NCBI GenBank assembly: GCA_017537515.1
Contig: JAFYKO010000170.1
Span: 1,487-65,486, forward strand
Direction of reading: 5' to 3'
DNA length: 64,000 nt
From: Clostridia bacterium
Lineage (GTDB): Bacteria; Bacillota; Clostridia; Christensenellales; UBA1242
Part shown: piece by piece, positions 1 through 64,000 of the stretch
Position numbering within the stretch: the first letter of the stretch is position 1
Layout of the letters: each line of letters opens with the position of its first letter
Notes under the pieces: generated by a model
Told to the model about the DNA's origin: nothing
Database searches by the model: none
The model's input: only the letters and a program-made list of their open reading frames with translations
Made by a program: the position numbers and the translations under genes

Positions 1-954
1 TGGCAGGTTGTTTTCAAAGTCCTTGCGATACTCAACGGGCACCTGGATAACTCGCCCCTGGTAATCGTCAAGTTCTGCGTCGCTTGTAATAACTTTCGGC
101 TGTTCAATGTCGGACCCGATAAAGACGGGGAACGTCGCCCCGCTATAAATCCCCTTGTGTGCCTGGACTTCCCATATCGCAGGTTCAAAGATTGCCACTT
201 TCGGGTTGTTGCGTTCTGCGTCAATGTGGCTTTCCAAAAACGACGTGGATTCGTTTCGGGAAGACACCACCCACATACGGCAGGGGACTTCGCCACCCTT
301 TGTCATAAAACGGGAGAACATACGACGACGAATGCTGTTATAGTTCTGCACCGCCTGGTCCGCAACTGCATTTTGGAAGTTGGCTTCGTCAATGATTGCC
401 CCTATAACTGCCTTACCCAAAGAGTGACGCATACGGGAACCATAGGCGATACCGACGTGGTGGGGGAACATTTCTTCGTCAATTCGGTCGCCCTTGCCTG
501 GAAGCAACTTGGAGCGGAAATAGGGGGAGCAGCCAATCACGTCAATAAGTTGGTCCGCAAGCACGGCACCCGCCAGGTCCATCGTAGCCGTAATGAGCGT
601 AATCACGATAGGTGTGGTCGGAATTAGTTTGAACTTCTTATGCGGGTCTTTTAGAAGCGTGACCCTGTAAAGGTCATAAAGGACCCCGATAATGGACACC
701 GTGGACTTACCCGCACCGATACACCCCGTAATGCAGACTTCAATGAACGGGCTGTAAAGCGGGTTCGGGAACAACTGCTTCAACTTTTCAAGCCAATAGG
801 GATAGACACGACCCTCGCCATAGATAGCACCGATATAGTGCGGGTCGTTAATGAACGTTTCAATGTCAACAGGAACGGATTCGTAGCCTTCGGCTATCGC
901 AGCAGCCTTATACAAGTCTGCGGTGCTTAATCCCGCAAGTCCATTTTCAGCCAT
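1..954 (-). CDS. terL: terminase large subunit, N-terminal ATPase part (3' end runs off window)
   Basis: Minus-strand ORF open to the window edge (absent from the ORF track). My translation: MAENGLAGLSTADLYKAAAIAEGYESVPVD...CITGCIGAGKSTVS (Walker A)...GAIIDEANF (Walker B-like). ATG at 952-954, preceded by AAAGGAAG. Confidence 0.85.
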   Translation of the reverse strand, partial: MAENGLAGLSTADLYKAAAIAEGYESVPVDIETFINDPHYIGAIYGEGRVYPYWLEKLKQLFPNPLYSPFIEVCITGCIGAGKSTVSIIGVLYDLYRVTLLKDPHKKFKLIPTTPIVITLITATMDLAGAVLADQLIDVIGCSPYFRSKLLPGKGDRIDEEMFPHHVGIAYGSRMRHSLGKAVIGAIIDEANFQNAVADQAVQNYNSIRRRMFSRFMTKGGEVPCRMWVVSSRNESTSFLESHIDAERNNPKVAIFEPAIWEVQAHKGIYSGATFPVFIGSDIEQPKVITSDAELDDYQGRVIQVPVEYRKDFENNLP

Positions 955-1153
955 AGACGTAAACTTCCTTTTACACACAAGGGTAGTTGGTGTTTGCGTG
1001 GCTGTCGCTCTTGTAGGGAAATATAACAAATAATCTGTTGCATCGTCGTTGCCATTTGACTCACGCATACGAATTTCAGTGATAGTCACTTCACGACAAC
1101 CTACAAACCTACCCCACCCACCCTATTCATACTCCGAAGCATTCGTGTAATTC

Positions 1154-1390
1154 GTGGGTGCTTACGCACCCACTCATTCCTACTCACGCTTCACGAGCCA
1201 GGAACTCCCCGACCTTAAAGAAATGTAATCCTACCCTTATAGACAATCACGCCCGTAAGGGCGTGATTAGGCACACAAGCGAGCGTCAGCGAGCGTGTGT
1301 GCCCAAACCTTTTATCCTGGATTTACAGCGTTACCTTTTTATCAACGTATGGGGTTTCCTATATACCTATACGGAGATAAAAAGGTAACG
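1154..1390. other. cluster of four strong hairpins in the 530-nt non-coding gap upstream of terL
   Basis: Hairpins: 1154-1173 (8-bp stem GTGGGTGC/GCACCCAC, loop TTAC); 1245-1268 (10-bp stem, GTAA loop); 1270-1303 (8-bp stem GGCACACA/TGTGTGCC, loop holds the direct repeat AGCGAGCG x2); 1329-1390 (13-bp stem CGTTACCTTTTTA/TAAAAAGGTAACG). Confidence 0.7.
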
Positions 1391-1458
1391 AAATTATAAT
1401 AGATTACCTACTTACTAGACGTGACATTTTTATCAAGGTATGCGTTTCTTGTAAAAAC

Positions 1459-1487
1459 TAAAAAAGCCCGATTTTCGGGCTTTTTAG
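1459..1487. terminator. rho-independent terminator, bidirectional in shape
   Basis: AAAAAAGCCCG-ATTTT-CGGGCTTTTT: 6-bp GC stem flanked by an A-run and a T-run, right after the stop of the 1489..2355 ORF. Confidence 0.75.
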
Positions 1488-1488
1488 G

Positions 1489-2355
1489 CTATTGGAACAA
1501 ATCCTTGTGCTTGAATTTGAATTTACGTTCCGCACTTGTAAGGGGTATTTTAGCAGCCTGTTTTTGCTTGATTTCGTCTATACGGGATTCGGGTTTTCCG
1601 TAAGCGGGCTTTAATAGATTTTCCCTACGCAATCGCAGAATGATAGACTGCTTGATTGTCGCTGACAGGTGGTCAAACTTCGGCATACTTATGAGTTTAT
1701 CAATTAGGGATTCCTGCTGCTTGCGTGTCCGAAGATTACCTATTCCGTGGGATTTAAGCATTTTCCATAGGGTGTTTCTGCATTCGTAATCCGTAGCCCC
1801 ACGTGAAGTTGAATACTTCCTATTTATGTCCCCTATTTCTTCTGCCTTGCTATCTGCCAGGGCATCTATTAAAATCATAGCGGAGAATGCCATAGCGTTT
1901 GAAACACGGGGTATCAAGTTTAGGGGGCAATCCGTAAAATCCTTGATATAGTATAGGATTGTGTCCTTTATGGCTTCCAGGCGAATGCCTACGCCCGCAA
2001 TTTTACTGCAAAGAAGCGTATTCCTTACCATACTCCAAACCACTTTCCATTCAAAGCCCTTGTAGTATTTTATGGGCATTACGTGGATTAGGCGGTCCTT
2101 TGCCTTGTAGTGGATTCCTTGTCGGAGCCATATCATACCCGTTCGGGGTGGCGTTTCTGTTCCTGTGCAAGTGAGCCACTGCTTGTTTGTGTAAGGGATT
2201 CGGGTTATTCCGTCTTTGCAGTATTGGAACTTTGTGGTCGGTTCCGTAGCGTTATCGTGGAAAGCGTCCATCGCTTCTGCGACAAAAAACCATTCTTCTT
2301 CGGGATTGTAAGCCTTGCGGGTGGTGGTTCTTGTCGGGTCCATAGTTTCGGTCAT
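1489..2355 (-). CDS. hypothetical protein (288 aa), immediately upstream of terL in transcription order
   Basis: Long minus-strand ORF with its own TTGCTATATT promoter-like motif upstream. No motif recognised. A small-terminase role is only a positional guess. Confidence 0.65.
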   Translation of the reverse strand: MTETMDPTRTTTRKAYNPEEEWFFVAEAMDAFHDNATEPTTKFQYCKDGITRIPYTNKQWLTCTGTETPPRTGMIWLRQGIHYKAKDRLIHVMPIKYYKGFEWKVVWSMVRNTLLCSKIAGVGIRLEAIKDTILYYIKDFTDCPLNLIPRVSNAMAFSAMILIDALADSKAEEIGDINRKYSTSRGATDYECRNTLWKMLKSHGIGNLRTRKQQESLIDKLISMPKFDHLSATIKQSIILRLRRENLLKPAYGKPESRIDEIKQKQAAKIPLTSAERKFKFKHKDLFQ

Positions 2356-2452
2356 TGCGGTAGTCCTATCAAACTTGAAAGTGTGGGTGTCTGCCGTCCA
2401 CCGCTAGGACTGATGCAACAGACGGCAGCACCCACGAATCACGTGTGATAGT

Positions 2453-2466
2453 AATATAGCAACAAA
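2453..2466 (-). promoter_or_regulatory. extended -10 promoter motif TTTGTTGCTATATT (minus strand)
   Basis: The reverse complement of 2453-2466 reads TTTGTTGCTATATT, the same motif seen upstream of many plus-arm genes. It lies ~100 nt upstream of the ATG at 2355. Confidence 0.45.
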
Positions 2467-2563
2467 ACACCAAACTGCGTATGGGGGTCTAATAGAAATA
2501 TCAAAAGCGGGGTTGTATTTTAAGGATATTTTTGTATATTTATTAGTGAACACGGGTGAAAGT

Positions 2564-3775
2564 ATGTGTGTAATAACTTATAATGCAGAACTCCGATTCA
2601 AGGACAAGGCAGACCTAGACTATTGGTCTAGTCTTCTTGATACGGCTAGAATTGCATATAACGAATGTGCCAACATACTTGATTCCAATAAGATACACCT
2701 GGACTTGAAATCAGTCCACAATGCCGTGTATTACATATTGAGAGAAAATTTCCCAACAATCCCTTCACAGGGTATTATCAAGATATACAAGGAATGTATT
2801 TCTGCATTCCGTTCAATCAACTCCAACGGGCATATAGAACACAAGATACTTGAAAAGAAGAATTGGTCTATGCGGTTGGACAAACGGTTGTATTCTAAAT
2901 TAAGTGTAGATAGTATATTGCTGTGTTCCGAAAAATCCAACCGTAGGGCTGTTGCAGAAATAATTAAGTTTCCAAAACTTGTGGAACTGTTCAAGAAATA
3001 CCCTACACAAGACCCGCTTATCTTCAAGCGTGACGACAAGTTCTACCTATCCATACCGTTCAATGCTCCCGAAATACCTATACAGAGCGAAAACTGCATA
3101 GGTGTGGATTTGGGCGAACGTAGGTTTGCTGTAACGTCCGATGGCATTATGTTCAACGACAAGGAATACAATGCCCGTAGGCGTAAATTACGCTACTTAA
3201 AAAGGTGCTTGCAGAAGAAGGGCACTAAATCCGCTAGAAAGCACAAATTAAAGTTGTCCGTAAAGGAACGGAATCAATCTACGGATATGTGCTACAAGAT
3301 GGCTAACGCCATTATCGGCAGCACCTATGCAAGCATTATTGTTCTTGAAGATTTAAGCAACATTAAGCAGAAAACTTCAAAAACAAAAGAAGGTTTTAAG
3401 AAAAAGAATCATAATCGTAGAATCGGGCAAGTCCCGTTCTACAAGTTCAAGCAAATCTTGTCATACAAGGCACTACTCAATGGAAAAAGAGTAGAAACAG
3501 TTTCTCCGTTTATGACAAGCCAAACTGACTGCACGACAGGCAAGAAGGACGGAACCCGTAAGAACCGCAGATTCTATTGCAAAAACGGGACTGTCCTGGA
3601 TGCCGATTGGAACGGTGCAATCAATATCGCTCAAAAGAGCAAACATCCTTTCTCGTTAAAGATACCCCTTGATGGAGCATTGAGAACCTGGAAGGCAGGG
3701 CGTGAGTCAACCGCCCAATCGTATGTAAGACTTCCTATGGAAACACAGGAAGCATTACAAACTCACTGTCTTTAG
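2564..3775 (+). CDS. tnpB: TnpB-like RNA-guided endonuclease (RuvC-like, OrfB_IS605 type)
   Basis: RuvC triad motifs are present: CIGVDLGERRFAV (D), SIIVLEDLSNIK (E) and VLDADWNGAINIAQKS (D). The Zn-finger position reads TSQTDCTTG...RFYCKNG, i.e. CxxG twice instead of CxxC. The likely start is the ATG at 2564 (MCVITYNAELRF), not the TTG at 2513. Confidence 0.85.
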   Translation: MCVITYNAELRFKDKADLDYWSSLLDTARIAYNECANILDSNKIHLDLKSVHNAVYYILRENFPTIPSQGIIKIYKECISAFRSINSNGHIEHKILEKKNWSMRLDKRLYSKLSVDSILLCSEKSNRRAVAEIIKFPKLVELFKKYPTQDPLIFKRDDKFYLSIPFNAPEIPIQSENCIGVDLGERRFAVTSDGIMFNDKEYNARRRKLRYLKRCLQKKGTKSARKHKLKLSVKERNQSTDMCYKMANAIIGSTYASIIVLEDLSNIKQKTSKTKEGFKKKNHNRRIGQVPFYKFKQILSYKALLNGKRVETVSPFMTSQTDCTTGKKDGTRKNRRFYCKNGTVLDADWNGAINIAQKSKHPFSLKIPLDGALRTWKAGRESTAQSYVRLPMETQEALQTHCL

Positions 3776-3943
3776 GTTGTGGGTAGTTGACAGCGGTCCC
3801 GACTTCAATGCACAGGTCCTTGCTTGTTTCCAAATGGAGCAGGTTTCTGCGACACCCTGTTTTCGTAGTTATAGGTATTGACTATAACAGAAAACCCCCG
3901 CCACGTTCCGTGGCAGGGAACCCCTATGGCTAATTGGGTGAAA
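3650..3943 (+). ncRNA. expected position of the TnpB omega-RNA (reRNA) scaffold and guide; not demonstrated
   Basis: In characterised TnpB systems the guide RNA overlaps the 3' end of tnpB and extends to the right end of the element. Here there is a 168-nt tail with the 3900-3914 hairpin. This call rests on position only. Confidence 0.3.
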
Positions 3944-4279
3944 TCAAGACCGCTTGTTAAATTCTTCAAAGAACTTTTCCAGGCGGGAATTGTTCTTGTC
4001 CCACCTGTCGTAAGCGATTTTGAGTAAGATGGTCCAGGAAGCGTAAATCCCAAGAATAGCGAACGCAACGGTCTGCGTAACGGGTCCGTTCCCGCAGGTG
4101 GCGTATGCCAGGGCTGTCGGGACGGAGAGCCACAGGAACGCTGCGAGAGCCACCGCAGCGATACCGAATACGGAGAGGATTGCCCACTTGACTATCAGCC
4201 CGACGGTCATACTTATAAATTCTGCCATACCTAACACGAAGTCGGTGGCTTTGCAAAGGATTTTGTTGAGAGTTTTCAT
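3944..4279 (-). CDS. small membrane protein (111 aa, about 3 predicted TM segments)
   Basis: Hydrophobic stretches MTVGLIVKWAILSVFGIAAVALAAFLWLSV and VAFAILGIYASWTILL. The other frames here (3966..4394, 4098..4499) look like overlap artefacts. Confidence 0.6.
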   Translation of the reverse strand: MKTLNKILCKATDFVLGMAEFISMTVGLIVKWAILSVFGIAAVALAAFLWLSVPTALAYATCGNGPVTQTVAFAILGIYASWTILLKIAYDRWDKNNSRLEKFFEEFNKRS

Positions 4280-4306
4280 TGTTGCAGTCCTTGTTAAGTG
4301 GGTTCG

Positions 4307-4462
4307 CTATCCTTCGGGAGTTATACCGAGGACTACCGTTATTCGGTACAGCACATACACAATGAGTGCTAATTTGCCAAAAGCCCATAAGCACTCAACT
4401 AGCTCACTGAAAGCCTTTAAAGCGTCATCGGAGTTGGTGTTTCTATTGTTGATGTTTTTCAT
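4307..4462 (-). CDS. small membrane peptide (51 aa), first gene behind a promoter/leader cassette
   Basis: Below the ORF-track size cutoff. My translation: MKNINNRNTNSDDALKAFSELVECLWAFGKLALIVYVLYRITVVLGITPEG. GAGGATA lies 6 nt upstream of the ATG at 4460-4462. Confidence 0.5.
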   Translation of the reverse strand: MKNINNRNTNSDDALKAFSELVECLWAFGKLALIVYVLYRITVVLGITPEG

Positions 4463-4529
4463 ATCGTTATCCTCGTGGTTGTTTACACCTATAATATAAC
4501 AAAATACCTACTGATTGTCAATAGGTATT
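4463..4529 (-). promoter_or_regulatory. hairpin/-35/extended -10/leader cassette (minus-strand copy)
   Basis: Reverse complement: AATACCTA-TTGACAATCAG-TAGGTATT-TTGT-TATATT-ATAGGTGTAAACAACCACGAGGATA. TTGACA at 4516-4521 and TATATT at 4493-4498, spaced 17 nt. The 8-bp stem arms are 4503-4510 and 4522-4529. Confidence 0.7.
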
Positions 4530-4554
4530 ATTAAAATAATTTCTTACGAATATG

Positions 4555-4971
4555 TTATTTTACGATTTCGGCTTCCTGGACGTTGGTCGGGGTTCCACCG
4601 CCACGTTTTAGGATTTCAGCCTTGATACGTTCCGCATCGTCTTCGGAAATCGTGGTCGTGTCAATCTTTTCTGCGGGCTTCTCAACGTCCACGTTGGACG
4701 TATCTACGTTGTGACCCGACAGGGCTTTCATAAAGTCCAAGCGGACCCTAAACGATTCGTTGCGTTGCTTTGACAGGTCTATGAGTTCACGGACAGACGC
4801 ATCGTCCAGGTTTACCTTTTGGGCTATGGCGTTGTCTATATCGTCCATAGAATGCAAAAGGGCTTCCATTCCGTCTATGGAATACTCCGTAATGTTGAGC
4901 ATTTTGCGGTTAAGACGGGCTTTGATAGCGTCTAGTTCATTTTGCGATATGGTGGCGGGCTGATTATCCAT
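4555..4971 (-). CDS. hypothetical acidic protein (138 aa)
   Basis: Minus-arm ORF rich in D/E. The ATG lies 6 nt after a -10-like TAGATT, so the mRNA appears leaderless. Confidence 0.6.
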   Translation of the reverse strand: MDNQPATISQNELDAIKARLNRKMLNITEYSIDGMEALLHSMDDIDNAIAQKVNLDDASVRELIDLSKQRNESFRVRLDFMKALSGHNVDTSNVDVEKPAEKIDTTTISEDDAERIKAEILKRGGGTPTNVQEAEIVK

Positions 4972-5006
4972 ACCTATAATCTAACAAATTATCTGCAATC
5001 GGTCAA
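4972..5006 (-). promoter_or_regulatory. sigma-70-type promoter TTGACC-17-TAGATT abutting the start codon
   Basis: Reverse complement: TTGACC (5001-5006), a 17-nt spacer ending AATTTGT, TAGATT (4978-4983), then ATAGGT and the ATG at 4971. Confidence 0.55.
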
Positions 5007-5064
5007 TAGCAAAAGACACCCGCCCTTGCGGGCGGGAGCCTTACTATGCTTCTCAACAAGAGAA

Positions 5065-7548
5065 TTACTTTTGCTTATACACCTTGACGGTGAAGCACAG
5101 CCCGCCATAACTGTCAAAGTCGTTATCGCTGCTGAAATAGGCTTCTTCGCCTTCGTCGTCCAGGAGGCAATCGGAATACTTTTCCTGGAACTCCGAAAGA
5201 ATGTTCTGTTCGTGTCCGTCCAGGTCTTCACCGTATTCATTACCGAAATTGTAGGCTTCCCAAAGCCACTTCGGAACGATGATTGTGTCAATCAATTCCA
5301 GGCGACCCTCGGATTTCTTGGATTCGGATTTCTTGGATTTCTTGCTTTCGTTGGCGTAGCCGTTTCTGTCTTGACGGGCGATTAGCCTTGCAGTTTCATA
5401 CGGGAGCGATTCGCCCTCAACGTAAGCGTCATTTATGGTGTCGCTGTGTTTGTCGGCTAGTTTGGTTGCCCCGTCTTCGCCATAATGGAATGACACCACA
5501 AGTTCGGAAATAACGTCGCTGCGGTAATTGTCAAGGCTAGACGCTTCGGACAATGCGATTTTTTCCATTTCGGCTTTATTGAACAGGCGTTCGGACGTTT
5601 TCTTCGGCAGCAGTTTGGCTTCTTTGGCTACATAGTTCTTGAAATCGGAATACTCACGCTGCATATAGGCAATAGCGTTTTTCTTGGCTTCGTCTTCGCT
5701 GCCTGCGTAGGTAATGACGTTGGTGAATTGGGGTTCGCCCTCAAATTCAAATTCCACCTTTACCTGCCACGGGCTGTCGGCTCCGTTGGCTTCGGACTTC
5801 TTGGATTCGCCCGCAACCTTTACGATTTTCGGGGGCAATACGCACCTACCTAGATTTTTTACCTTGTCCTTGATAGTAGGCGGGATAGTCCTGGTTCGCT
5901 TTAAGCCAATCTTGTTAAGTTTGGCAGTCAGTTCGTTGCTTGCAGCACCCTCGTTAAGCCACACGTTGTAAATTTCGTCGTAGTCAACGTCAAGCATTTT
6001 CGCAAGTTGGCTAAACAGGCGTTCACGAATAAGGGAGTCGCCTACACCAATGTAGGTGTAAACGTCGTCGCCACGCAGCAAGGTTTGAAGAACGCCCTTG
6101 AACGTTCCGTTGAGCCTGTCGCCCAGGTCGTCGTCCTTGTAAGCACCCATATACCAATCCTTGATAGGTGCGTCAAAGGGTCCGTTGGCTTCGGACTGCT
6201 TGGATTCGTCCTTGTTGTAGCCACAGAACGCTGCGACTTCCTTTGCACCGTCTTCAACGGGTTTTCCCTGGTAGAACATAGCGTCCAACTTTTCCATCCA
6301 ACCGACGTTAAGACGGCAGGTGTCCTTGTCGTTGAAGTCCATACCATACTTGGATTTGAGCAAGGACTTTACGTCCTTGATATACTTGTCAAATTCGTCA
6401 GCGGACTTGCTTTCCTGTTTGCTATACTGCTTCATACGCTTCAAATGCTCCTCTGCGTCTTTCTTCTTTGCGAACGACGCAAGAATGCGGTTGTCTTCGT
6501 GGGAGCGAATGACCCAGGGTGCGTCTTCGCCCTTGGAATTTTTGTGACCTTTTTCGTAGCCCAACTTTTCGTCAGTGGGTCCCTTGGATTCGTCCTTCTT
6601 GCCCGTAATTTCGCCACGGACAAAGAGGACTTTTTCTTTAAGCGACAGTTCCTTGTCGTCAAGAAGTTCCTGCATTTCCTGGGTGTGAGAATCCAGGTAA
6701 TTCTTCACTTCGTCTTCGTCAAGGTCAAACTGCTTCACAAGTTTTTCTTCAAGGGCTTCCAGGAAACCCTTCAAGGACATAGCCTCGTCCTTGTGTGCGG
6801 AAATGCCGAGGGATTCCATCGGGATTTCCGTCTTGTCGTTATCCTTGACACCTACCAATTTAAGGTTTGTAGCACCGTGCTTCTGTGCATCCTCAAGGGT
6901 GCCCTGTGCGTCAACGATGCCGTTGGTAGTCTTGGAACGGTCGTTGCCGTTGAGGGTATAACTTGCGATGAAGAAGTCATACTGCGACGGGTCAAACTTT
7001 GTTTCGTGAAGTTTAATAGTCAGTTTGTGCTGCATACTTTCACCCCTTGAATTAAACATATTGTTTTCTATGAACGACACAAGTGCTGTTGCATCGTCGC
7101 TGTGAAGGTCAAATTCTTCGGACGGTCTGCGTTCAAGCCCATACCCTGGGTAGAACCCGTGTATAACAAAGCCGTCTTCTTCCTCAATGATAGCCAGGAC
7201 ACGGAAAATGAACGCAGCCCTGCGGGGGCAGCGTATCGTTTCTTTGACCCTAACGCAGACACCGTTCGGAAGTTCAAGTGTGCTTCCGTAGCGGAGGCAA
7301 TCTACGTTGTATTCAGCGGATTCGTTCTTGCCCGCCTGCATAGCGTTGAATCGTGCCAACTTGTGAATGTGACGCTTGCCCGCAAAGGACTTAATCCACC
7401 CATTGAGTTCTTTTGTTCGCTTACGCCTTGTCAGTGGATTGTTCCAGGTATGCTCCGCACGGGCAGACTGAATGAAGCCTGTTGCCTTGTGGCTGTCCTT
7501 GAACCTGTCAAGCAGCGATTTCTTTTTTAGGAACGCTTTATGGGGCAT
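5065..7548 (-). CDS. large modular protein (827 aa) with repeated ESKKSEANG linkers and an internal (L/I)KIxLHE tag
   Basis: Continuous ORF. Linker peptides: ESKQSEANG (aa 448-456), ESKKSEANG (aa 581-589) and ESKKSKKSESKKSEG (aa 734-748). An internal SD-like GGGGTGA plus ATG (7033-7035) precedes MQHKLTIKLHE. Confidence 0.7.
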   Translation of the reverse strand: MPHKAFLKKKSLLDRFKDSHKATGFIQSARAEHTWNNPLTRRKRTKELNGWIKSFAGKRHIHKLARFNAMQAGKNESAEYNVDCLRYGSTLELPNGVCVRVKETIRCPRRAAFIFRVLAIIEEEDGFVIHGFYPGYGLERRPSEEFDLHSDDATALVSFIENNMFNSRGESMQHKLTIKLHETKFDPSQYDFFIASYTLNGNDRSKTTNGIVDAQGTLEDAQKHGATNLKLVGVKDNDKTEIPMESLGISAHKDEAMSLKGFLEALEEKLVKQFDLDEDEVKNYLDSHTQEMQELLDDKELSLKEKVLFVRGEITGKKDESKGPTDEKLGYEKGHKNSKGEDAPWVIRSHEDNRILASFAKKKDAEEHLKRMKQYSKQESKSADEFDKYIKDVKSLLKSKYGMDFNDKDTCRLNVGWMEKLDAMFYQGKPVEDGAKEVAAFCGYNKDESKQSEANGPFDAPIKDWYMGAYKDDDLGDRLNGTFKGVLQTLLRGDDVYTYIGVGDSLIRERLFSQLAKMLDVDYDEIYNVWLNEGAASNELTAKLNKIGLKRTRTIPPTIKDKVKNLGRCVLPPKIVKVAGESKKSEANGADSPWQVKVEFEFEGEPQFTNVITYAGSEDEAKKNAIAYMQREYSDFKNYVAKEAKLLPKKTSERLFNKAEMEKIALSEASSLDNYRSDVISELVVSFHYGEDGATKLADKHSDTINDAYVEGESLPYETARLIARQDRNGYANESKKSKKSESKKSEGRLELIDTIIVPKWLWEAYNFGNEYGEDLDGHEQNILSEFQEKYSDCLLDDEGEEAYFSSDNDFDSYGGLCFTVKVYKQK
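5782..5808 (-). repeat. 27-nt intragenic repeat encoding ESKKSEANG (copy 2)
   Basis: TCCGTTGGCTTCGGACTTCTTGGATTC matches 6181-6207 at 26 of 27 positions. Confidence 0.85.
6181..6207 (-). repeat. 27-nt intragenic repeat encoding ESKQSEANG (copy 1)
   Basis: TCCGTTGGCTTCGGACTGCTTGGATTC matches 5782-5808 at 26 of 27 positions. Confidence 0.85.
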
Positions 7549-7555
7549 TGTAGAA

Positions 7556-7753
7556 TTATTCCATTTGGTCGCACTTGTTGTAATATAGATAAATCACCAG
7601 GCGGGCAAATTCTTCGTTGTTCAAACTGCCCGTGTCCGCTACGAAACCGTCCCACCAACCTGCGTCAATGTGTTCTTGAATTTTATCCGCAAGGGCTTTA
7701 ATGTCCTTGTTCTTGATACATTCTTCCCAACGTTCATTTCTTGAAAGATTCAA
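7556..7753 (-). CDS. hypothetical protein (65 aa), TTG start
   Basis: Good coding appearance. There is no in-frame ATG, so the start is uncertain. Confidence 0.45.
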   Translation of the reverse strand: MNLSRNERWEECIKNKDIKALADKIQEHIDAGWWDGFVADTGSLNNEEFARLVIYLYYNKCDQME

Positions 7754-7800
7754 TTTTCTTTTGCATAGAACAGTTGAATTTTTTCATACGTCATTCTCCC

Positions 7801-9159
7801 TTAAAGGTCAGTCATACCCTTCTTTGCGATTTCAATGCCTGCAACGCCCGTCTTCTTAACGCCCGTGTCGGTCTGTGGCATAACAGCACGGCTAGGGGCG
7901 TTCTTAATGGGTTTGTTGGACTTCTTCATCAATCCCGCATTACCGATGATGGCGTTTTCAATGTCGTCCTTGTCAATTTCGGAGTTGTAAAAATCCTGGT
8001 AGGCAGAAACCATACCGTCCTGGATATTCTTTTCAAGGTATTCACGGAGTTGGTCGGACGACCAATCAAACATATTCATACCAGGTGCCACTGTGCTTTG
8101 CGGAACTTCGCCATCGTTGGCGATAGCGATTGCACCCTGGAAGTCACGCAGCATATCTGCGGGGTCCTGGGCGGTATCGCCTGCGGAGTTCTTGAACACA
8201 AGACTGTCAATTTCGCAGTTCGGGTTCAACAGGAACACCTGGGACCACCTGTGGTGCCCGTCCACAATGTAATACGTTCCGTTGTAGTCATAGACTACCA
8301 ACGGCAGGTTCACGGTCACGGGACCGCCATCAAGAATCTGCTTCACCTGTTCGGGGTTCTTACCGCTAACCTGGTAGGAAAGCGACTTGCCCACGTCAAT
8401 TTCGTTTTGAGTCGGGTGAAGGTCCTTCGCCTTGATGTTCATAGTGGTGGTGTCCATCTTTTCAGCGTATTCACCATCACCGAAGCCCTTTTCAAGCAGG
8501 GCAAGTTGTTCGTCCGTCAAGCCATCCAAAGCGTTCACAAGACTGCCCATATCCGACTTGGATTTAAGGTCCTTAACTTCCTTGTCAAATTCCTGGTCGC
8601 CCGTTTCTTCGTAAATGCCGTCCAGGGCTTCGTTGTAGCCCTTCTTGTATGACAGGAACGCTGCACGGTTCGGGAACGATTCCTGGGTCTTCATAGGGGC
8701 GTAGTTGCGTCCGTCACGATTACCCTGGGAGTAATAGGCTTCGCCTTTGGATTCCGTAGGTGCCGACGGCTTGTTGTCAAGAATGCAGGACGTAAGCGTT
8801 TCAAGTTCTGTGTCAGTCGGGAACTCCAACTTCTTGCCGTTGTCAAATTCCATACGGAGCAGGTCTGCATCGGAGTCATACCACATTTTGCCGAAATCTT
8901 TGTATTCCTTGTATATCGGATTGGTAATTTCGCTGATTACAAGTGTCCCGCCAATGCTCCAACCGCAAGAAATAAGGTGTTCGGGGTGGTCATACTTGAA
9001 ATACAACCACACAGGACGGGTAAGGTCGTTGCTGTAAGCAGGGTCCTTGTTCCATATTTCACGTCCGTCCTTGTCCTTTACACGCTTCCCAAGCCACTGC
9101 TTGTCAGCATCAGAAACTGATTCACGCTTCTTGTTATGAAGATTGATTTTGAAACTCAT
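7801..9159 (-). CDS. protein with a C-terminal ParB/Srx-like nuclease domain (452 aa), N-terminal MSFKINLHN tag variant
   Basis: KDLHPTQNEIDV...YYIVDGHHRWSQVF matches the ParB-N/sulfiredoxin-fold signature (DGxHR). Confidence 0.6.
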   Translation of the reverse strand: MSFKINLHNKKRESVSDADKQWLGKRVKDKDGREIWNKDPAYSNDLTRPVWLYFKYDHPEHLISCGWSIGGTLVISEITNPIYKEYKDFGKMWYDSDADLLRMEFDNGKKLEFPTDTELETLTSCILDNKPSAPTESKGEAYYSQGNRDGRNYAPMKTQESFPNRAAFLSYKKGYNEALDGIYEETGDQEFDKEVKDLKSKSDMGSLVNALDGLTDEQLALLEKGFGDGEYAEKMDTTTMNIKAKDLHPTQNEIDVGKSLSYQVSGKNPEQVKQILDGGPVTVNLPLVVYDYNGTYYIVDGHHRWSQVFLLNPNCEIDSLVFKNSAGDTAQDPADMLRDFQGAIAIANDGEVPQSTVAPGMNMFDWSSDQLREYLEKNIQDGMVSAYQDFYNSEIDKDDIENAIIGNAGLMKKSNKPIKNAPSRAVMPQTDTGVKKTGVAGIEIAKKGMTDL

Positions 9160-13008: not shown

Positions 13009-13107
13009 AATATAACAAAATACCTATTGTTTAGCAAGTATGTAAGCAAATTGTAAACAAAAATTTTAATAAGCCCTGTTGACTGCGGGTGGGTATTTAG
13101 TTATATT
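13009..13107. promoter_or_regulatory. back-to-back divergent promoters separating the two transcription arms
   Basis: Minus strand: TTGCTA (13032-13037), 17 nt, TATATT (13009-13014). Plus strand: TTGACT (13079-13084), 17 nt, TATATT (13102-13107), followed by a leader ending CCACCGAGGA. Confidence 0.65.
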
Positions 13108-21756: not shown

Positions 21757-21837
21757 AATACCTGTTGACAATCGGCAGGTATTTTGTTATATTATAGGTG
21801 TAAAGGAAAGACAACCACCCCAACCGAGGATAGCCAA
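21757..21837 (+). promoter_or_regulatory. hairpin/-35/extended -10/leader cassette
   Basis: AATACCTG (21757-64), loop TTGACAATCGG, CAGGTATT (21776-83). TTGACA at 21765-70, 17 nt, TATATT at 21788-93. Leader: ATAGGTGTAAAGGAAAGACAACCACCCCAACCGAGGATAGCCAA, then ATG. Confidence 0.75.
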
Positions 21838-25820: not shown

Positions 25821-25902
25821 AATTACCTATTGACAGTCAGTAGGTAATTTGTTATATTATAGGCGTAAAGAGAAGACAACCACTTCAACCGAGGATAGCA
25901 AA
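25821..25902 (+). promoter_or_regulatory. hairpin/-35/extended -10/leader cassette
   Basis: AATTACCTA (25821-29), loop TTGACAGTCAG, TAGGTAATT (25841-49). TTGACA at 25830-35, 17 nt, TATATT at 25853-58. Leader: ATAGGCGTAAAGAGAAGACAACCACTTCAACCGAGGATAGCAAA, then ATG. Confidence 0.75.
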
Positions 25903-36395: not shown

Positions 36396-36477
36396 AATAC
36401 CTGTTGACAATAAGCAGGTATTTTGTTATATTTAGGGTGTAAAAGAAAGACAACCACCACAAGCGAGGATAATCCCA
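36396..36477 (+). promoter_or_regulatory. hairpin/-35/extended -10/leader cassette
   Basis: AATACCTG (36396-403), loop TTGACAATAAG, CAGGTATT (36415-22). TTGACA at 36404-09, 17 nt, TATATT at 36427-32. Leader: TAGGGTGTAAAAGAAAGACAACCACCACAAGCGAGGATAATCCCA, then ATG. The upstream ~20 nt (TAACATACTATTTTAAC) also match the 21730 copy. Confidence 0.75.
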
Positions 36478-50116: not shown

Positions 50117-50137
50117 TTGACGCTCTTGTGCTATATC
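50117..50137 (+). promoter_or_regulatory. class-II motif TTGACGCTCTTGTGCTATATC
   Basis: TTGACG, 9 nt, TATATC with a TG extended -10. Upstream of the polymerase gene. Confidence 0.5.
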
Positions 50138-50175
50138 TATATTACAGAAGTTTAACGTTTACGGAATAAGAATTT

Positions 50176-55232: not shown

Positions 55233-55305
55233 GGACGTGTAGCACAATGGTTGGTGCGACGGACTCATAACCCGTTGGTTGCAGGTTCAAGTCCTGTCAC
55301 GTCCA
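55233..55305 (+). tRNA. tRNA with CAU anticodon (elongator Met or lysidine-modified Ile2 type)
   Basis: Hand fold, 73 nt. Acceptor GGACGTG/CACGTCC, T8. D arm GCAC-AATGGTTG-GTGC. Anticodon arm ACGGA-CTCATAA-CCCGT with an A31-C39 mismatch. Variable loop TGGTT. T arm GCAGG-TTCAAGT-CCTGT. Discriminator A. No encoded CCA. The G1-C72 pair argues against an initiator. Confidence 0.85.
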
Positions 55306-61525: not shown

Positions 61526-61601
61526 TTGACAGACGCTAGATAATTAGTTATATTTATGGTGTAAAGAGAACAACCACTCACTACAACCGAGGTATAACTC
61601 T
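61526..61601 (+). promoter_or_regulatory. promoter/leader cassette (hairpin arms degenerate in this copy)
   Basis: TTGACA (61526-31), 17 nt, TATATT (61549-54). Leader: TATGGTGTAAAGAGAACAACCACTCACTACAACCGAGGTATAACTCT, then ATG. Confidence 0.65.
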
Positions 61602-63745: not shown

Positions 63746-63868
63746 ACTATGGTGTATAAAAGTTTATTAAAATCTACTTGTATTTCTTGAAAGGTTTATG
63801 TATATTTATGGCAGGAAATTACGGTTCCGACAATACAGTTGAGTTTCAAAAATACCCGCAAGGGTGTT

Positions 63869-63908
63869 ATCCTGTCGTTACCGTAATTAGCGACAGGATT
63901 TTTGTTTT
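63869..63908 (+). promoter_or_regulatory. 9-bp hairpin plus U-run in the 5' leader of the second tnpB (IS200/IS605 left-end-like structure / attenuator)
   Basis: ATCCTGTCG (63869-77) pairs with CGACAGGAT (63891-99). TTTTGTTTT follows. It lies between a TGTATATT promoter (63799-806) and the ATG at 63909. Confidence 0.5.
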
Positions 63909-64000
63909 ATGGTAGTTACAAAAGGCATAGAGTTAAGACTAAACCCTACGAAGGCACAAAAAGTGTTCTTTAATAAGTGCATCGGTGCTGAACGTGTAGC
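63909..64000 (+). CDS. tnpB: second TnpB-like protein, N-terminal 30 aa only (runs off window)
   Basis: My translation MVVTKGIELRLNPTKAQKVFFNKCIGAERV matches the canonical TnpB N-terminus (K.y.fRl.Pt.eQ...l.k.fG..Rf.yN). Confidence 0.55.
   Translation, partial: MVVTKGIELRLNPTKAQKVFFNKCIGAERV

Follow-up and report, generated by a model that had tools for sequence, protein, structure and literature searches.

A stranded, zinc-finger-less TnpB of a jumbo phage whose predicted guide matches the uninterrupted allele of sister phages

Introduction

How can the gene of a transposon nuclease stay intact in a phage genome from which its element can apparently no longer be excised? This question is raised by a tnpB gene in a 64,000-nt stretch of contig JAFYKO010000170.1 (assembly GCA_017537515.1), which was analysed as a whole and is referred to as the window. 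The window is phage DNA: among its gene products are a DNA polymerase, a helicase, an endolysin and a ParB-like protein, and the related contigs in IMG/VR measure 213-308 kb. The carrier is a jumbo phage. Transcription of TnpB systems, processing of their omega-RNA and cleavage that depends on a transposon-adjacent motif (TAM) belong to the established biology of TnpB (PMC8612924, 10.1101/2023.03.14.532601, PMC10278001), as do the donor-joint/TAM model and the TnpB-driven spread of elements without TnpA (10.1101/2023.03.14.532601, PMC13565253), and a "non-restorative homing" by TnpB has been proposed (PMC13565253). The best explanation of the locus as a whole, which we regard as reasonably probable from the sequence comparisons given below, is a stranded TnpB with an intact guide system aimed at sister phages.

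Results and Discussion

An intact tnpB gene and its empty site

As judged from domain matches and a structural model, the open reading frame (ORF) at 2564-3775 is a real, intact TnpB. Its product matches NCBIfam NF040570 (guided_TnpB) with 152.4 bits over residues 20-358 (cut-off 100), Pfam PF07282 (Cas12f1-like_TNB) with 62 bits (E=5.9e-17; cut-off 26.3) and the PHROG "transposase" family 506, and scores slightly below the cut-off of PF01385 (29.4 bits; cut-off 30.5). A phmmer alignment with PDB sequences places D182 (GVDLG), E262 (VLEDL) and D348 (DADWN) at the catalytic D191, E278 and D361 of ISDra2 TnpB, and among 74 aligned homologues the first Asp and the Glu are invariant and D348 is nearly so. 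The 403-aa reading frame and the three RuvC motifs GVDLG, VLEDL and DADWNGAINIA, on which a first-pass annotation of this DNA had based its description of the gene, are confirmed by these alignments. An AlphaFold2 model calculated from the 74-sequence alignment reaches a predicted local distance difference test score (pLDDT) of 90.5 and a predicted template-modelling (TM) score of 0.77, the former zinc-finger region included; a model from a shallow alignment of 17 sequences, at least 63% identical, in which the RuvC half was disordered (pLDDT 57), was set aside. In a Foldseek search, the retained model matched, over its full length, Cas12f (8dzj_A; E=3.6e-16, TM 0.66) and the TnpB structures 8iaz_A and 8h1j_A (TM values of about 0.6). 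Only distant matches of at most 31.5% identity were found by tblastn among 50,697 GenBank phages.

The history of the insertion is visible in three sister phages (L001-L003), which share the flanking 288-aa gene at 84% identity and carry no tnpB. The homology between these phages and the window, as detected by blastn, stops at 2465, resumes as an island of 59 nt at 3787-3845 (86% identity) and is found again from 4471. In place of the element, the sister phages carry genes of 107, 295, 283 and 191 aa, and the island falls within the intact 283-aa ORF. The uninterrupted site reads gTTTCAC/AGCGGTCCCGACTTCc there (empty site TTCAC/AGCGG..., the slash marking the junction), and the junction of the window reads ...GTTGAC/AGCGGTCCCGACTTCa. 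The segment directly outside the right end (RE) of the element, its putative guide, matches the empty site at 15 of 16 nt, directly after TTCAC, and next to the right end a short remnant of the target gene is preserved, for which tblastn aligns NLLHLETSKDLCIEVGTAV with NLLRWDTSKDLEMEVGTAV; the 283-aa target protein belongs to PHROG 30451, a family of unknown function. At the sequence level, the combination of TTCAC, guide match and remnant is characteristic of an insertion of the IS200/IS605 type 3' of a TAM. The use of the RE flank as a guide against the empty site follows the donor-joint logic that was shown experimentally for other TnpBs (10.1101/2023.03.14.532601). The components of the element and its surroundings are as follows.

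2480-2563, plus strand: residual left end (LE), 5'-truncated, with TTGTAT at 2513-2518, a 16-nt spacer, TATATT at 2535-2540 and a Shine-Dalgarno-like GGGTGA at 2554-2559
2564-3775, plus strand: tnpB ORF, 403 aa, with the RuvC triad D182/E262/D348
3792-3807, plus strand: guide segment AGCGGTCCCGACTTCA, 16 nt, maybe extending to about 20 nt, directly 3' of the right end
3789-3845, minus strand: orphan remnant of the target gene, 19 residues equivalent to residues 239-257 of the sister-phage 283-aa protein

In the carrier genome itself, the guide-matching sequence is preceded not by TTCAC but by TTGAC, the transposon-encoded motif (TEM). The window contains just one other match to the guide, with five mismatches and no TAM. 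A site scan of IMG/VR returned three empty sites, namely those of L001-L003, and no occupied one, and a scan of JGI metagenomes with a 19-mer returned the same phages (two) and seven chance matches in unrelated GC-rich contigs.

The element sits in a variable cassette locus bounded by the 288-aa and 138-aa genes (2356-4554). In the relatives compared (L001-L006, L014, L015), this locus holds four genes (107, 295, 283 and 191 aa), two, one or none, and in the window lineage it holds tnpB together with genes of 111 and 51 aa.

Ends of the element and loss of the left end

The boundaries were determined with seven further tnpB copies taken from viral contigs. Those of L007, L008, L009 and L010 have only a unit of about 1.4 kb in common, with unrelated flanks on both sides, and represent independent insertions of a tnpB-only mobile element. 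On the right, the alignment of the copies breaks off directly after ...GGGTAGTTGAC, which places the end at position 3791 of the window, 16 nt past the stop codon. On the left, full copies start about 166 nt upstream of the ATG, and 8 of 11 close copies show the junction TTCAC, followed by AAAAGAGTGGGCAGGAAGAT and the hairpin GCCACCCTTTAGGGTGGC; three others read TCAC, TTTAC and ATAC, and L024 has no recognisable left end. The same arrangement of TAM and hairpin also occurs in more distant members of the clade described below.

The window copy lacks the first ~80 nt of the family LE, including the TAM TTCAC, AAAAGAGTGGGCAGGAAGAT and the hairpin GCCACCCTTTAGGGTGGC. Some 1.2 kb of the phage DNA next to it has also been lost, and the sequence to the left of the element is not the continuation of the 283-aa gene. 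Since the orthologue in the diverged relative L014 (TnpB 97% identical) shows the same truncation with an unchanged junction, the deletion is old, and because TAM, left-end terminus and LE hairpin are lost, the copy is no longer excisable by a TnpA. As judged by its sequence features, it is a derivative of an IS200/IS605-type element and not a functional member: insertion 3' of a short TAM without target duplication holds for the family and for the history of the window copy, and of the subterminal hairpins expected at both ends, that of the RE is present in a weakened form and that of the LE is absent. The 1.4-kb unit contains tnpB only and no tnpA, TnpA genes elsewhere in the phages or hosts not having been searched for. 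The G+C content of the element is 40.6%, against 48.3% for the window, which agrees with the earlier remark that the gene is AT-richer than its neighbours, and the paralogues differ from their flanks in the same way. The first-pass annotation had also called for a comparison with related phages, and the independent copies and the empty-site sister phages have now resolved ends, TAM (TTCAC) and target; it had missed the left-end truncation.

A predicted, covarying omega-RNA scaffold within the 3' part of tnpB

From 28 copies whose proteins show 37-86% identity to the query, the terminal 180 nt up to the right end were aligned and folded with RNAalifold, and a scaffold was predicted from the following parts; the last line gives a neighbouring hairpin outside the element.

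About 3647-3791, plus strand: minimum extent of the omega-RNA scaffold, overlapping the 3' end of the ORF and ending at the TEM TTGAC
3647-3652 / 3690-3695, plus strand: helix H1 (RNAalifold)
3706-3711 (GTCAAC) / 3786-3791 (GTTGAC), plus strand: closing helix H2 (RNAalifold)
3731-3735 / 3748-3752, plus strand: hairpin A, covarying within the close family and added by hand
3761-3769 / 3775-3784, plus strand: hairpin B (RNAalifold), with the stop codon beside its loop; also the subterminal hairpin of the RE
3895-3919, minus strand: intrinsic terminator of gene 3944-4279, an 11-bp GC-rich stem followed by the T-run TTTTCTGTT

Over the 27 pairs of the scaffold, 92% of the cells are paired, and changes are compensatory in 20 of the pairs. 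In 500 shuffles, no observed measure was equalled, and sliding the partners by 1-3 columns leaves only 31-43% paired. The conserved structure, as predicted from the sequence, stops exactly at the RE boundary, which is why the scaffold is placed within the 3' part of the ORF and position 3792 is taken as the first of the guide. The minimum free energy fold of the single sequence 3640-3791 (z = -2.4) contains hairpin A and lacks the closing helix, and the alignment-based fold was preferred; an Rfam scan of 2000-4600 at E<=1 gave no match. In the window copy, helices H1, H2 and A are intact.

These results do not support the earlier expectation of an omega-RNA and guide in the 168-nt tail that follows the gene, since the scaffold lies within the ORF 3' end and the guide follows from 3792, directly after the last base of the element (3791). 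The tail is composed of 16 nt of right end, 54 nt of target remnant (3792-3845), about 50 nt of unknown origin and the hairpin at 3895-3919. Likewise, a hairpin at 3900-3914 that had been assigned to the omega-RNA turns out to be the terminator for the adjacent gene on the minus strand; it follows the stop codon of that gene after 24 nt and lies outside the element. A bidirectional function of this terminator was considered and rejected, as the plus strand has no T-run after the hairpin.

Conservation of an immobilised copy

According to the substitution patterns, the window copy is immobilised yet conserved and under purifying selection. The ratio of nonsynonymous to synonymous substitution rates (dN/dS) is 0.05-0.13 in comparison with the paralogues and 0.157 in comparison with the L014 orthologue that shares the truncation (21.5 synonymous and 13.5 nonsynonymous changes), and the 35 substitutions between these two truncated lineages include no stop codon or frameshift. 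An identical TnpB protein is encoded at the same locus on 16 contigs from several samples. Between the window and L014, tnpB diverges by 2.9%, compared to 8% over the surrounding 5 kb, and the 389 nt from 3530 to 3918, spanning RuvC-III, omega-RNA, guide, remnant and terminator, are free of substitutions, which fits constraint combined with recent conversion of this tract. The first-pass annotation had named a decaying remnant, with frameshifts in relatives, as the outcome that would speak against its view; damage of this kind is indeed present in some paralogues, whereas the window copy and its L014 orthologue, with their dN/dS of 0.157, are intact.

Directly beyond the substitution-free tract, the product of the 111-aa gene is 64% identical between the two genomes, so that a sharp mosaic boundary lies next to the element.

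Loss of the zinc finger as a trait of the clade

The TNB region of the protein (about residues 314-346) contains no zinc-binding set of Cys or His residues, and in the phmmer alignment with ISDra2 TnpB each CxxC pair has lost its second Cys through a deletion of one residue. A word-indexed search yielded 1,243 homologues; the best 120 clusters are at least 64% identical to the query and 394-413 aa long, except for three of 344-379 aa. An exhaustive search of 1.84 billion representatives gave 106 clusters at E<=1e-30. In the alignment of all full-length hits, both CxxC motifs are absent from about 75 full-length representatives with 30-52% identity to the query, the RuvC triad is retained throughout this clade, and the two cysteines left over in the query vary (C/S/Y/H and C/S/T/A/G), whereas homologues below about 30% identity show the canonical CxxC...CxxC pattern. 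Because the loss is common to a whole clade under purifying selection, it is regarded as a trait of the clade and not as damage, and from the alignments the zinc finger is absent by descent rather than degenerate in this particular copy. The "degenerate zinc finger" of the first-pass annotation was thus correctly observed, in that the second Cys of both pairs is gone, yet it is not peculiar to the copy. The structure prediction proposed at the same time, which was to show whether zinc sites remain, gives a confident fold including the former zinc-finger region (pLDDT 90.5), and the cysteines of the CxxG sites vary among clade members.

The C4 zinc finger is typical of TnpB, not obligatory, and large branches without it have been described (Altae-Tran et al. 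2023, PMC10691335). The window protein resembles these in that the finger is lost in a large, conserved branch that is present in viruses. One of them, RIIIr-4, is zinc-finger-less and virus-enriched and has the RuvC-III Asp replaced by His (PMC10691335); an assignment to this branch was rejected, as the window TnpB retains the canonical RuvC-III Asp (DADWN, D348). The clade, which is large, occurs mainly in phages of gut and rumen: its members were found at only about seven loci among 185,579 species-representative genomes, all on contigs of Bacteroidales metagenome-assembled genomes from gut or rumen, and at about 37 loci in IMG/VR, for the most part on contigs of phages with lengths of 100-420 kb. 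Such small, probably zinc-independent TnpBs, enriched in phages, might be screened as genome editors; if the reading of the locus given here is true, the clade would furnish compact nucleases (403 aa) that need no zinc and have a defined TAM (TTCAC) and scaffold.

A promoter-like motif in the residual left end

The gene had been proposed to be driven by a phage-type promoter. The underlying motif TGTATATT does recur, being found at 2533-2540 and again at each of the other three positions given in that proposal, with six matches in the window against 1.5 expected, a number reached by 1 of 100 shuffles, and four of the six matches lie directly upstream of genes. The longer form TTGTAT-N-TGTATATT is common only to the window tnpB and a second tnpB at the end of the window. 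A sigma-70 scan did not list the proposed tnpB promoter, which matches only 8 of 12 consensus positions. Paralogues from unrelated phages show TTGCAT-N17-TAAACT or a similar sequence at the homologous position, and GTATATTTAT-like -10 regions are typical of the left end in the wider clade. The main promoter class of the phage is TTGACA-N17-TATATT with a TACCTG/CAGGTA palindrome (recurrent form TACCTnTTGACAAT...CAGGTATTTTGTTATATT; TTGAC-N16-19-TATAT has 8 matches in the window against 0.37 expected), with which the tnpB motif has the -10 hexamer alone in common. Since the paralogues in unrelated phages carry it at the homologous position, the promoter-like motif is best read, at the level of sequence, as part of the element's own left end, and the attribution to the phage is not upheld.

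The phage promoter class is also seen as a recurrent promoter-like module, TACCTnTTGACAATnnGCAGGTATTTTGTTATATT, with the palindrome around its -35 box, often followed by a conserved leader ending in AACCGAGGATA right before the start codon. The module occurs at the following positions.

4494-4521, minus strand: module TACCTnTTGACAATnnGCAGGTATTTTGTTATATT
13079-13106, 21765-21792, 25830-25857, 36404-36431, 50117-50142 and 61526-61553, plus strand: the same module

Proposed course of events and alternative explanations

The identity and anatomy of the element, as described above, are held with high confidence. A tnpB-only element of the IS200/IS605 type inserted 3' of TTCAC into the 283-aa gene of a jumbo phage, and the later loss of the left ~80 nt together with ~1.2 kb of adjacent phage DNA made excision impossible, leaving nuclease gene, omega-RNA scaffold and guide intact and conserved. 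In the proposed course of events, the promoter of its own left end would transcribe tnpB through the right end, and TnpB would bind the 3' part of the transcript as omega-RNA, by analogy to ISDra2. The complex would then recognise TTCAC followed by AGCGGTCCCGACTTC, which in silico corresponds to the uninterrupted allele of the sister phages, and the carrier genome would be spared, as TTGAC precedes the same sequence there. By analogy to phage homing endonucleases and to the "non-restorative homing" proposed in PMC13565253, the cut would, during co-infection, either destroy the competitor or be repaired from the tnpB-bearing genome and thereby spread the cassette. Transcription through the RE, processing of the omega-RNA and TAM-dependent cleavage are assumed for the window element because they are established TnpB biology. 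Of the roles suggested in the first-pass annotation, homing or inter-phage competition is the one best supported, through the match of guide and target, and no evidence was found for the targeting of host or plasmids. RNA-guided homing or competitor exclusion in co-infection is thus the likeliest function, to which we would give slightly less than even credence, and it is a shade more tentative still that the immobilised, zinc-finger-less TnpB and its omega-RNA are kept as a dedicated RNA-guided homing or exclusion nuclease against the variable-cassette allele of the sister phages.

Several observations weigh against this proposal. The element is known here from its sequence alone, and the literature searched contained no biochemical test of any zinc-finger-less member of the clade. 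Guide and known target differ at position 16 and again at 19-20. Hairpin B, which is also the RE hairpin to which a TnpA would bind, has an inner stem (TGTC/GGTT) in the window copy that contains a U.U mismatch and two G.U pairs, with a folding energy of -6.0 kcal/mol, compared to -18.7 in L007; this weakening, next to the guide, may reflect relaxed selection after immobilisation or could impair the function of the omega-RNA, and the covariation of hairpin B may stem from the binding of TnpA to DNA instead of RNA structure. The identical 389-nt tract could arise by ordinary mosaic recombination. Finally, decay does occur in the family, since L010/L011 contain a 10-bp tandem duplication TACGATAACT (about 5990-6010) that causes an N-terminal frameshift, and the paralogue in L027 (1501-2709) has one in-frame stop codon.

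Some of these points would equally be expected of a neutral, decaying relic that was stranded by the LE deletion, is useless to the phage and has an intact ORF merely through shortness of time. The lost left end and TAM, the weakened hairpin B, the disrupted paralogues and the destruction of the target gene on both sides of the element all agree with such a relic. It is nevertheless considered unlikely, as shortness of time is hard to reconcile with a dN/dS of 0.157 over 35 substitutions without stop or frameshift between lineages that share the truncation, with the better conservation of tnpB than of the surrounding 5 kb (2.9% against 8%), with the occurrence of the same protein on 16 contigs from several samples and with the intact RNA helices H1, H2 and A.

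The conservation could also be explained if the copy had been exapted as a regulator or defence tool, that is, as a TldR-like RNA-guided repressor or a nuclease directed at the host, at plasmids or at the phage's own genes. Immobilisation combined with conservation is the pattern reported for exapted TnpBs (PMC10691335), and the orientation of the gene opposes the flanking transcription. The RuvC triad is intact, unlike that of inactivated regulators, and the sole TAM-adjacent match of the guide is the sister-phage gene, the other match in the window having five mismatches and no TAM and the metagenome 19-mer scan having added only chance matches in unrelated GC-rich contigs to the same phages; this role is therefore judged improbable. 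Least credible of all, and very improbable, is a still-mobile insertion sequence that is moved by TnpA in trans and uses TnpB only for classical restorative homing after excision. The family is or was mobile, as indicated by paralogues in unrelated contexts with precise ends and TTCAC junctions, and the LE and RE hairpins of full copies are alike, as in substrates of TnpA. The window copy, however, lacks the TAM, the left-end cleavage site and the LE hairpin, its left flank does not continue the target gene, no tnpA is present within the 1.4-kb unit and the junction has remained unchanged in the diverged orthologue of L014.

Relation to known systems

With ISDra2 TnpB (PDB 8bf8, 8exa, 8h1j), the window protein shares the overall fold and the RuvC D-E-D residues at aligned positions. 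The two systems are also alike in a guide RNA derived from the 3' end of tnpB and the right end, with the guide directly outside the element, in a 5-nt TAM at the left junction and in a scaffold whose closing helix joins the 6 nt in front of the guide to a segment further upstream. They differ in that the proteins are only about 20% identical, that the window TnpB has no C4 zinc finger, that the TAM is TTCAC in the window family and TTGAT in ISDra2, and that the window element has no tnpA, resides in a jumbo phage and has lost its left end. The TnpB and IscB nucleases of the Geobacillus ISGst elements (Meers et al., 10.1101/2023.03.14.532601) provide a parallel to the guide logic, as their guides target the TAM plus the RE flank, i.e. 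the empty site, and the RE motif (the TEM, TTGAC in the window element) resembles the TAM (TTCAC) but differs from it. However, the ISGst target is produced by TnpA-mediated excision in the same cell, whereas the window copy cannot excise, and the only known targets of its guide are alleles in other phage genomes.

In this last respect, the proposed role is reminiscent of the free-standing homing endonucleases SegF, SegB and Mob of T-even phages, which are responsible for intronless homing and localized marker exclusion (PMC13565253). In both cases, a phage-borne nuclease located in a variable cassette region would cut the homologous locus of a co-infecting relative, resulting in co-conversion of the flanks or exclusion of the competitor. 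The recognition by the window TnpB would be guided by RNA instead of protein-based, and self would be distinguished from non-self by the presence or absence of the insertion (TAM versus TEM) and not by substitutions in the site, a distinction that is known here only from the sequence.

The occurrence of TnpB in phages, zinc-finger-less TnpB branches and TnpB-driven homing were each known or proposed before. The locus adds a natural example that can be read from its sequence, with exact ends, TAM and TEM, a covarying omega-RNA, a guide and a target in sister phages. Because the copy is unable to transpose and yet remains under purifying selection, the locus allows a direct test of the hypothesis that TnpB alone, with no TnpA, skews inheritance or keeps out competitors when phages co-infect. 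If the proposal is true, "non-restorative" homing by TnpB would here occur in nature, between viruses that infect the same cell, and the locus would possibly be a step from a selfish transposon nuclease to a phage weapon.

Phage context and further features

As stated in the first-pass annotation, tnpB is the sole plus-strand gene in the minus-strand arm of the window. A megablast search with positions 1-8000 of the window found no match among the 50,697 GenBank phages.

Several TnpB elements per phage are present both in the window phage and in L014. The second tnpB of the window, unrelated to the first, starts at 63911 on the plus strand (MVVTKGIELRLNPTKAQKVFFNKCIGAERV...) and extends past the window end; it is preceded by the promoter-like TTGTATTTCTTGAAAGGTTTATGTATATT at 63778-63806, with a hairpin and T-run (about 63875-63905) between this motif and the ATG. 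A third tnpB, coding for 398 aa and an HTH_OrfB_IS605 domain, belongs to the same phage as the window and lies outside it, roughly 0.9 kb to the left of its start (L015, 3334-4530, minus strand). TTGTGT-N17-TATATT is found directly upstream of this gene, and a different tnpB of 431 aa occupies its place in L014 (2225-3520, minus strand).

A long, near-perfect hairpin (GTGGGTGtCTGCCGTC...GACGGCAGcACCCAC) at 2383-2436, upstream of the 288-aa gene, belongs to the phage backbone and is conserved in the sister phages that lack the element. The only tRNA gene in the window is a tRNA-Met (CAT) at 55233-55305 on the plus strand.

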